Below, piece by piece: positions 12,368 to 14,790 of a DNA stretch of 64,000 bases. The notes under the pieces were generated by a model. That model did not search any database and had not been told where the DNA came from. It saw nothing but the letters and a program-made list of their open reading frames with translations. The translations under genes and the position numbers were made by a program. The stretch's first letter is position 1, and every line of letters starts with the position of its first letter. The stretch comes from Escherichia coli (GTDB lineage Bacteria; Pseudomonadota; Gammaproteobacteria; Enterobacterales; Enterobacteriaceae). The stretch lies in assembly GCF_003018115.1 (NCBI RefSeq), contig NZ_CP027457.1. One strand, given 5' to 3'.

Positions 12368-13165
12368 TTAATGAACATTCGTCGCCGAAAACGAGTCTGT
12401 ATCATTAGCGTGATGCAGTCTCTGCAAAGGATCTTGTTGATAAAATTGGCAGAAACGTTGCCACAATGAAGGGAAACGAGGAGCAAAAAGTTCTGGGGCG
12501 CTAAAGAAATATTCAGAAAGTACGGCAAAACATTCAGCAGGATCACTGGCAGCATAAGCATCAATGCTCGCCGCATTCTCGCCAACCAATTCGATTTCTT
12601 CCTGAATGTTGTTCATTGCAGCATGAAGATCGTGTTCCCAGCCAGCAACCTCACGCAACGGAATAAAGGGAACACCGCTGGCGCGATCGCCGTTACGGGT
12701 GTCCAGCTTATGAGCGACTTCATGAATAATCAGGTTAAAACCAGAAGCATCAAAAGAATCTTGTATATCCAACCAGTTCAAAACGATAGGCCCTTGCTGC
12801 CAGCTCTGACCTGACTGAACAATACGTTGGTTATGCACCAGACCGATATCGTCTTCCCATTCATCATCGACCACAAATGGCGCAGGATAAATTAAGACTT
12901 CATGAAAACCATCCAGCCATTCCAGTCCTAACTCCAGAACGGGTAGGCAAAATAGAAGTGCTATCCGGCAGCTTCTTAATGAATCCAGTTCAAAGCCCTG
13001 TAAAGGAACAAGCCGCTTTTGCTGTAAAAAACGTTCGGCAAGAGTGACTAATTTGCTTTGTTCCTGTTCCGTCAGACACGTTAAAAGGGGGATCGATAGT
13101 GCTTCCTGCCAGGGAAGGGCAGTTTGATGTGCTGATTCTTGTACTTTCCAGGGCCACTTAATCAT
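12368..13165 (-). CDS. mtfA: Mlc titration factor A (zinc-dependent peptidase-like), ~265 aa
   Basis: ORF with N-terminus [23 protein letters not shown]... after trimming the track's upstream extension; contains an HEXXH-like motif (IHEVAHKLD). Confidence 0.85.
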
Positions 13166-13258
13166 CGTTTTGCTCGCAAACTCGTCACTTGAACAAAATT
13201 GCACGGACAGGGACTGTTAAAATGCCAAATTTCCTGGCATCATGGCAACCATCTGAAC

Positions 13259-13348
13259 GGAGAGATGCCGGAGCGGCTGAACGGACCGGTCTCGAAAACC
13301 GGAGTAGGGGCAACTCTACCGGGGGTTCAAATCCCCCTCTCTCCGCCA
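13259..13348 (+). tRNA. serU: tRNA-Ser (long variable arm; CGA anticodon type)
   Basis: Sequence GGAGAGATGCCGGAGCGGCTGAACGGACCGGTCTCGAAAACCGGAGTAGGGGCAACTCTACCGGGGGTTCAAATCCCCCTCTCTCCGCCA matches E. coli tRNA-Ser. Confidence 0.9.
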
Positions 13349-13917
13349 CTTTATCAATGACTTATCTCCCGACTTCCCGCCTTGCTTTTCCTAAACAGAA
13401 CAATCGTAGAATATTCTTGAAGGGTTAGATCGTCACTGTTTTCTGTTCGATACTGTGACATTCAGCACTTGATTCGCTATGGATCTGACAGGAAGCTTTC
13501 GAGCGAAAATGTGCAGTTATTCAGTCGTTTTCTTATCGCTCACCATTCTTCTTTTAGACATTCATCCTATGAAACTGCCGCAAAGTTGGTGGTGGGAACT
13601 GAAGTTGCGTAGAGAAGGGGTCAATAATTGAGTCAAAAAAGGAACGCGGCCGTCAGATTAAAGCCGCGGGACAAAGTCCATAATTTCCAAGAGTTGTTGA
13701 ATTTCCCAGCTTTTTTGAAAGCCTTTGTATCATACTAACAAGTAAAAAAGGTTTAAATACCAAAATTAACCTGTATTTTTGATAAGTCTTACCATTGTAC
13801 GATTTACACAGTTTCTGCTCCTCCTTGTTGATAGTGGAAAGGGTGCATTGTGCACTTGCGTAAACATTTATGACGCGTTGATGTCCATGGTTCACATTTC
13901 CTTGTCAGGGGATCGAC

Positions 13918-14448
13918 TTATTTGCGGCGAGGCATCATTCGTAACAGAGTATTATCTTTCTGAATGTAGTGATGAAAGAGTGCTGCGCCAGCGTGAGCTG
14001 CGATTAAAAAGTAGCCTATATTTGCCCAGGTTTCGTGAATATTTTTTATCAGTGCTTTAATTTCGCTGTTTGGGGTAACAAAGGGAGACACATTGAAACC
14101 AAGGAAACTCCACGATTTTCCACTGTAAGCCATTAAAGCAATCCCCAGCAGAGGAAGCGCAAGGAAGGTTATATAAAGCATGATGTGCATTAGCGAAGCC
14201 GCTTTCATTTGCCAGGCAGGTGGCGGTGGCACAATAGAAGGATCACTATAACGGTGTTTTATAATCAGGCGTGAAAACATTAACACCCAAACGAATATAC
14301 CCGCATTGTAATGTGTTTCTCGCATCAGCAGATAAGTACTACTACCTTTAGGAAACCAGCCACGGAGTTCCATCGCGGCATAGGTTATTGCAACGAAAAG
14401 CAGCGTTATCCAATGTAAATAAATTTGAGTTTTTGAGAATCGGTTCAT
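13918..14448 (-). CDS. yodB: Cytochrome b561 family membrane protein (~176 aa)
   Basis: ORF with N-terminus MNRFSKTQIYLHWITLLFVAITYAAMELRGW...; multiple TM helices and conserved His residues. Confidence 0.8.
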   Translation of the reverse strand: MNRFSKTQIYLHWITLLFVAITYAAMELRGWFPKGSSTYLLMRETHYNAGIFVWVLMFSRLIIKHRYSDPSIVPPPPAWQMKAASLMHIMLYITFLALPLLGIALMAYSGKSWSFLGFNVSPFVTPNSEIKALIKNIHETWANIGYFLIAAHAGAALFHHYIQKDNTLLRMMPRRK

Positions 14449-14790
14449 TTTTGTAGCTCCTGTAATTTTCACAGTCAAGCTATCCCACGAACCTTAAAAA
14501 TTCCTTATACAGATGTGGTTTTAAGAATTTGTTATTTAAAAAATTGATAGTGCACATTGTAACCAGCCAATATAAGCAATGTCGTGAGCACAGGTATCTT
14601 TCTCTGTTGGCCGTATTGTGTATGGAATCCGTTATTGGTTAACTCAATGCGGGTTAGCTTATTAATATACAGACACGTCATAGTGATGAGCGTGTCTGTA
14701 GCTAGCTTGCGTTCAGTGGCGTTTGTGGATGGACCAGTGGCAGTTATGATGACTTACTAAAGCGGCATCGAGGCGTTATCATGAGAATAC

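Follow-up and report, generated by a model that had tools for sequence, protein, structure and literature searches.

The convergent genes serU and yodB of Escherichia coli enclose 569 bp (13349-13917) in which no feature is annotated, either in K-12 (NC_000913.3) or by PGAP in the 40 genomes displayed, and the question raised by this gap is what it holds and how it came to be there. Positions refer throughout to the window, that is, the whole stretch of 64,000 nt of E. coli DNA (contig NZ_CP027457.1) that was analysed; the features are collected in Table 1.

A three-part gap without a protein-coding gene

The K-12 counterpart of the gap (2042899-2043467) is of equal length, and identity to the window amounts to 99.5% for K-12 over 13200-14500 and 100% for F9792 over 801 nt (13200-14000). 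All ORFs in the gap are of 80 aa or less; no Pfam or PHROG match was obtained for those of 80, 50, 47, 36 and 35 aa, and gap ORFs are broken or strongly altered between E. coli alleles. A protein-coding gene was therefore rejected, in agreement with a preliminary description of this DNA, which had seen no convincing ORF here and had named a conserved annotated gene as the finding that would speak against it; the K-12 and PGAP annotations contain no such gene. The further statement that nothing specific could be recognised proved incorrect, as definable RNA features with experimental support are present, while the guess that DNA so close to a tRNA gene might carry an integration scar or a small RNA was borne out on both counts, by an attP-flank segment and by a unit of small RNA (sRNA) type.

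The gap was divided into three segments (A to C, Table 1). All 569 bp were found in 3064 of the 5426 complete E. coli genomes searched, most of the others having gap positions 1-447 only, at about 96% identity, and segment B was found in 5412. Alleles of the B2 type, of O104:H4 and of E. albertii lack 13796-13917 together with yodB, and the zinT terminator follows directly; segment C is therefore part of a yodB insertion/deletion polymorphism of about 870 bp, reaching from 13796 to about 14670. As yodB is missing from the B2-type, O104:H4 and E. albertii alleles alike, its absence is probably ancestral and the gene a later acquisition of about 870 bp. In yodB-less alleles, about 115 bp of unrelated sequence lie between the sRNA unit and the zinT terminator (locus L003, 3448-3560; locus L012).

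IS elements (ISCro1/IS66, IS3 and IS1) interrupt the gap at varying points in some strains, for example at about 13416 (locus L005) and about 13809 (locus L004), and the insertions inspected all lie outside 13635-13757. The locus tags of NZ_CP024273.1 skip RS11170 between RS11175 (tRNA-Ser) and RS11165 (yodB), and it seems that a gene call in the gap was withdrawn there. Two metagenome-assembled contigs, CAUHML010000302.1 ('uncultured Bacteroides sp.') and JAEWTL010000060.1 ('Bacillota bacterium'), are 99.5-99.6% identical to the E. coli locus and have probably been mis-binned. The folding energy of larger stretches was not unusual (z = -1.4, -0.5 and +0.3), and only individual stems were informative.

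Table 1. Features of the serU-yodB gap and its borders, in window coordinates
Feature	Position	Strand	Basis
serU, tRNA-Ser(CGA)	13259-13348	+	ARAGORN and Rfam
Segment A, serU 3' trailer and phage att-flank	13349-13626	+	Phage identity, Rho data
Segment B, lambdoid late-operon leader remnant (very probable) with predicted small-RNA gene	13628-13795	-	Phage homology
Segment C, yodB 3' flank	13796-13917	-	Only in yodB-carrying alleles
yodB (cytochrome b561 homologue)	13918-14448, stop codon 13918-20	-	K-12 and F9792 annotation
-35 element TTTAAA of predicted sigma-70 promoter	13757-13752	-	Consensus scan
17-nt spacer	13751-13735	-	
-10 element TATGAT	13734-13729	-	Consensus scan
Predicted start	About 13724-13722 (K-12 about 2043092-2043094 (+))	-	Inferred
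Predicted small RNA, about 89 nt	13635-13723	-	Term-seq 3' end, covariance, conservation
5' hairpin	13723-13708	-	
Single-stranded linker, about 28 nt, varies between subtypes	13707-13680	-	
Mini-hairpin GGAC-UUU-GUCC (GGAC-NNN-GUCC across copies)	13679-13669	-	
Terminator stem, 7 bp, GC-rich	13668-13662 / 13651-13645	-	
U tract UUCCUUUUUU, U6 tail	13644-13635	-	

The tRNA-proximal segment is shared with serU phages and ends serU read-through

Segment A is 96-97% identical to DNA of the temperate lambdoid phages ev099, mEp332 and PhiR70_1. In ev099 it stands directly after the attP core, which consists of a 62-nt copy of the serU 3' end, and is followed by an AraC-like gene, transposase fragments, int and xis; in lysogens, a duplication of 61-62 nt of the serU 3' end is found at attR, immediately before the gap. 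The serU 3' end is attB for two classes of mobile elements. Lambdoid prophage duplications of 61-62 nt at serU were seen at loci L187, L189, L005 and L088 (window 13324-13348), and an island with a tyrosine-type integrase beside attR duplicates only 14 nt, CCCTCTCTCCGCCA (loci L003 and L190). With up to 3 mismatches allowed, the window contains no second copy of the serU 3' end that would represent an attR scar.

E. albertii has a diverged segment A in the same place, with 91% identity in the first 130 nt and less beyond, suggesting that the segment has been chromosomal since before the split of E. coli and E. albertii. The divergence of only 3-4% from the phage copies points to a more recent exchange between phage and chromosome, in either direction. 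Outside Escherichia, in some 60 Enterobacteriaceae loci anchored on mtfA, homology ends within 20 nt of the tRNA, and yodB and zinT are not nearby. The first 16-20 nt past the tRNA (CTTTATCAATGACTTATCTC, 13349-13368) can be aligned in Citrobacter, Salmonella, Enterobacter and other genera and might belong to attB or serve as a processing or trailer signal.

A published Term-seq analysis of K-12 lists a Rho termination region at 2043225 (-) that is among the strongest listed (Rho score 39, p 2e-241), with 7705 reads upstream and 24 downstream in untreated cells and 9053 and 1099, respectively, after bicyclomycin (PMC7815308, supplementary file 2). The position, which is approximate according to the authors' own caveat, converts to window 13591 (+), inside segment A and about 240 nt past the tRNA; a C-rich, G-poor tract (13368-13395) lies upstream of it. 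As this bicyclomycin-sensitive region maps to about 13591 (+), it was concluded that read-through from serU is stopped by Rho within segment A. The serU and yodB units are thus insulated from each other by Rho on the serU strand and by an intrinsic terminator on the opposite one, the ends of the two convergent units being about 45 nt apart.

A predicted small-RNA gene and its transcript in K-12

On the minus strand of segment B, a sigma-70-type promoter match precedes an RNA of about 89 nt that is predicted to begin with a hairpin and to end in an intrinsic terminator (Table 1). Its 3' end coincides with an experimental one: of the three conditions of Adams et al. 2021 (PMC7815308, supplementary file 1), two show an 'orphan' 3' end at K-12 2043181 (+). 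This position corresponds to the final U of the tract (window 13635 (-)), and the flank printed with it is this terminator. The end gives a weak signal, about 2000 where DsrA reaches 6e5, and none in LB at OD 0.4. A discrete RNA almost certainly ends at 13635 and, judging from the promoter match, would start at its own promoter. The same data contain an ORF-internal 3' end in mtfA (K-12 2043721 (+), LB at OD 0.4, window about 13095 (-)), which adjoins a GC hairpin at 13106-13122.

An ORF of seven codons starts from an AUG in the mini-hairpin, with no Shine-Dalgarno sequence visible, and its AUG is lost in three phage variants; we read the RNA as non-coding. A search of the element against Rfam 15 returned no match at E <= 1, only tRNA models scoring above threshold, and the identities sX4, STnc100 and AgvB were rejected, their scores lying far under the gathering threshold. 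No mention of an RNA from the serU-yodB gap was found in the literature by gene names or by the RNA sequence.

In Table S1 of Bar et al. 2021 (PMC8175672), which draws on the Hfq RIL-seq data of Melamed 2016, there is an entry named 'yodB.serU.IGR', with 39 chimeric fragments in exponential phase (one partner) and 33 in stationary phase (two partners). Its SIC values of 0 and 0.5 equal 1 - 1/k, meaning that it takes second place in every chimera, an sRNA-like position; its recorded U tract is 6, and its sRNA scores of 0.010 and 0.046 fall under the authors' cut-off of 0.1 (PMC8175672). The table carries no strand, and the abundant serU trailer on the other strand is a possible source of the entry, in which case the Hfq-bound RNA would be a sponge resembling 3'ETS-leuZ. 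Such an origin would fit the heavy transcription of the trailer up to its Rho site and has a precedent in the same table, where the tRNA trailer sponge leuZ.yecA.IGR is flagged as a known sRNA (PMC8175672). However, a recorded U tract of 6 suits the minus-strand terminator, whereas U runs in the trailer do not exceed 4 before the Rho site, and a constant second position in chimeras is what RNAs ending in a terminator typically show. The trailer is therefore considered an unlikely source, and the species seen on Hfq is presumably the RNA of about 89 nt.

The sole exponential-phase partner is given with 15 interactions and an SIC of 0.094324, the values of the ompF row and likewise those of MicF's partner; by this matching of table values, the partner of yodB.serU.IGR appears to be ompF. 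The duplex energy of the RNA with ompF was no better than that of shuffled sequence, and an 11-bp ompF match near +135 (predicted duplex CUCUUGGAAA / UUUCCAAGGG) is at chance level. Regulation of ompF by the RNA is regarded as doubtful.

It might also be argued that the conserved hairpin is a mere terminator of yodB, or of zinT where yodB is missing, that the RNA is the 3' end of a long 3' UTR and that the promoter match is fortuitous. yodB has the same orientation and lies 283 nt upstream, the sequence from its stop codon to 13668 showed no strong terminator, and its transcripts could read through to the terminator at 13635, so that the RNA might simply be the end of yodB read-through. The promoter scan of the gap found two sites where 2.7 are expected in shuffled sequence, and the 'orphan' class of Term-seq ends includes long 3' UTRs. 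On the other side, the unit is equally conserved in about 2300 yodB-less genomes, in which zinT has its own terminator hairpin about 110 nt upstream; the conservation extends over 101 nt and the -35 element and is thus wider than the hairpin; and prophages without a same-strand gene upstream have the same architecture. In the phage copies, a 3-nt indel is compensated by TAGTAT serving as the -10 element, so that the 17-nt spacer is retained, which counts in favour of the sRNA-gene reading. The yodB-terminator reading was thus judged quite unlikely, and an independent sRNA gene is probable.

Conservation of the unit in E. coli and its probable loss from E. albertii

Of 5417 genomes, 5377 have the 101 nt spanning the -10 element through the U tract at 99% identity or more, and in these the promoter, both stems and the U tract are intact; in the same search, a control stretch of 101 nt from segment A was found in 3124 genomes and was at least 99% identical in 2659. 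Among eight alleles representing both allele classes, segment A has 20 variable sites in 279 nt, about nine of which separate the two classes, and 13761-13795 has about eight in 35 nt. The sRNA unit has four in 101 nt, all of them singletons, and no deep polymorphisms. Over 126 nt, about seven deep polymorphisms would be expected at the rate of the flanks and one was observed (p ~0.01, Poisson). Conservation thus covers the full 101 nt together with the -35 element and is not confined to the hairpin.

E. albertii is without about 110 bp that comprise nearly the whole unit, the -35 element and upstream sequence being kept. The missing stretch is that between 8-bp direct repeats, AAAAAAGG (13635-42 and 13744-51), which bracket 109 bp, and from the alignment E. 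albertii seems to have undergone a deletion, an insertion in E. coli being the less likely reading. A MITE-like insertion with target-site duplication was rejected, as phage homology continues across the repeat on the right and the promoter-proximal flank is still present in E. albertii. As both flanks are present in E. albertii and only the repeat-bracketed stretch is missing, the remnant appears to be older than the E. coli/E. albertii split.

That the whole region is inert prophage debris, its RNA noise and the high identity the result of chance or of recombination spreading one allele, is very unlikely: low expression, a low RIL-seq sRNA score and the loss of the unit from E. albertii without obvious consequence would agree with this, but the unit is near-invariant in all phylogroups between flanks that both carry deep allele differences, and its promoter, stems and U tract have stayed intact.

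Relatives of the unit in prophages

Segment B is about 65-70% identical over some 170 nt to SerU-LTIIb (1740-1890) and vB_EcoS-683R6. The homologous phage piece has the Q/tRNA genes on one side and the holin gene on the other, its orientation with respect to the late genes is the same, and the chromosomal and phage copies have one architecture in common on the minus strand, consisting of promoter, 5' hairpin and terminator. On these comparisons, segment B is very probably of prophage origin. The att-flank lies next to the tRNA and the late-leader piece is distal, both in prophage orientation; this order and these orientations of segments A and B fit a single serU-integrated prophage with internal deletions.

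An 18-nt core of the element was found in 90 viral contigs in a scan of IMG/VR, and a prophage-type version is present in 297 E. coli genomes. Annotated copies lie antisense between Q/tRNAs and holin in three records and, with an interposed tRNA, in one more; the ORF-scanned viral contigs mostly show the same layout. Exceptions are two annotated E. coli copies, separated from their usual neighbours by other genes or an IS element, and one Stx-type viral contig in which a variant lies downstream of the toxin genes. In this contig (L163), Shiga-toxin-like A and B ORFs at 204-1430 stand upstream of the variant, which has only the mini-hairpin and terminator module in common with the other copies (31 bits).

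Both stems of the RNA show covariation among more than 30 distinct phage copies. In alignment A3 (MAFFT, 23 distinct copies), 93.8% of cells are paired, compared with 41-54% when the partners are slid, and five pairs, with 27 cells, are changed on both sides; none of 500 shuffles reached the observed score. In alignment A4 (35 distinct copies), which was fitted to the covariance model and so leans toward it, nine pairs are changed on both sides, among them the six that make up the 5' hairpin. The covariance model (R1) has a single match in the window, at 13635-13735 (-) with 67.7 bits, a match expected by construction with the chromosomal copy in the training set. No R1 match was obtained in E. 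albertii or in the serU loci of other genera.

Further elements were observed near the phage copies. About 45 nt downstream of the sRNA terminator, phages have a second module built in the same way, GGACNUUGUCC, with a CACGAG...CUCGUG hairpin and a U run (locus L088, 1680-1750 (-), and the same position in most viral copies), which is absent from the chromosomal copy and would represent a second small RNA or else a tandem terminator. On the other strand, about 90 nt from the phage element, Rfam gives a weak AgvB-like match (locus L088, 1596-1659). In some viral contigs, a further and more divergent paralogue lies about 1 kb away from the first copy (L145, 4466-4564; L164, 1962-2060), with another 5' hairpin, linker and terminator stem and about 60 bits with R1.

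Proposed origin and significance

Taken together, the gap is best explained as the relic of an ancient lambda-like prophage integrated at serU, with a small-RNA gene that was later domesticated, a reading to which we give a probability of roughly two in three (0.68). It draws on the phage homology of segments A and B in the expected order and orientation and on the survival of the 17-nt promoter spacer through the 3-nt indel. In outline, serU is followed by the 278-bp trailer, in which Rho stops read-through in K-12 and which present-day serU-specific phages also carry beside their attP core. Within about eight bases of it would come a late-operon-leader fragment of some 170 bp with one complete gene on the opposite strand, made up of a sigma-70-type promoter with a predicted start, the RNA of about 89 nt, and an intrinsic terminator whose 3' end is the experimental one.

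In intact prophages, the RNA would be complementary over its full length to the Q-dependent late transcript, at a point just ahead of the holin gene, and may act there as a cis-antisense brake or as a regulator expressed in the lysogen. On the chromosome, the late operon has been lost and yet the gene is near-invariant in E. coli, suggesting that it was domesticated as a trans-acting, Hfq-associated sRNA; a role in trans is favoured for this copy because its cis-antisense target is gone. The sole partner signal in published data indicates the ompF porin mRNA, a link that is the least secure step. A wider proposal, which we put forward only tentatively, is that the RNA belongs to an unnamed family of sRNAs of about 90 nt antisense to the late leaders of many lambdoid prophages, one copy of which was domesticated before the split of the two species and, maintained in E. 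coli by strong purifying selection, became a core Hfq-associated regulator, with OmpF perhaps as its target. If that were true, a phage function in lysogenic conversion or receptor control would have been turned into a host gene.

Even for K-12, the best-annotated bacterium, neither RefSeq nor Rfam has a feature here. If the prophage-derived sRNA gene is confirmed, a core-genome sRNA gene would be added to the K-12 annotation, a name and a structure would become available for the family found in the 90 viral contigs and in the prophages of the 297 E. coli genomes, and the locus would provide a clean case of prophage decay down to a single retained regulatory RNA. The phage copies also raise the question of antisense control of the late (lysis) transcript.

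Comparison with known systems

A prophage-derived sRNA is of a known kind and does not constitute a new kind of system, and the Rho terminator is ordinary and well supported. The closest functional analogue of the serU-yodB RNA is IpeX, reportedly an RNA from the lc 3' UTR of DLP12 and phage PA-2 that lies between Q and the lysis genes, antisense to late transcription; it is said to end in an intrinsic terminator, to be tied to down-regulation of OmpC and OmpF and to be kept in a cryptic prophage. The two are alike in their phage derivation, in their slot and strand and in the possible link to porins. Homology to IpeX (nmpC/lc 3' UTR) was rejected, the best local score being 19 against a shuffle mean of 18.4 and a maximum of 27. 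While IpeX makes up the 3' UTR of a porin gene, the serU-yodB unit has no upstream ORF and has a 5' hairpin at its predicted start; unlike IpeX, it also stands outside any recognisable prophage.

AgvB and AsxR (Rfam RF02702), reportedly found along with other Hfq-binding sRNAs in the lambdoid prophages of EHEC, resemble the unit in being short Hfq-associated RNAs of the late-leader 'moron' slot. They differ in lying on the opposite strand, and the AgvB type is strain-specific, whereas the serU-yodB copy is core to E. coli. As with tRNA att scars, the DNA 3' of serU matches the attP flank of phages that use serU; in contrast to such scars, the window has a single copy of the tRNA 3' end, and segment A doubles as a Rho-terminated trailer. 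DicF, which acts in trans with Hfq, likewise represents a small RNA that has outlived the decay of a lambdoid prophage (Qin, K-12). It is, however, a processed operon product of the immunity region, and Qin is still recognisable as a prophage, whereas at serU only the sRNA unit and the att-flank segment remain.
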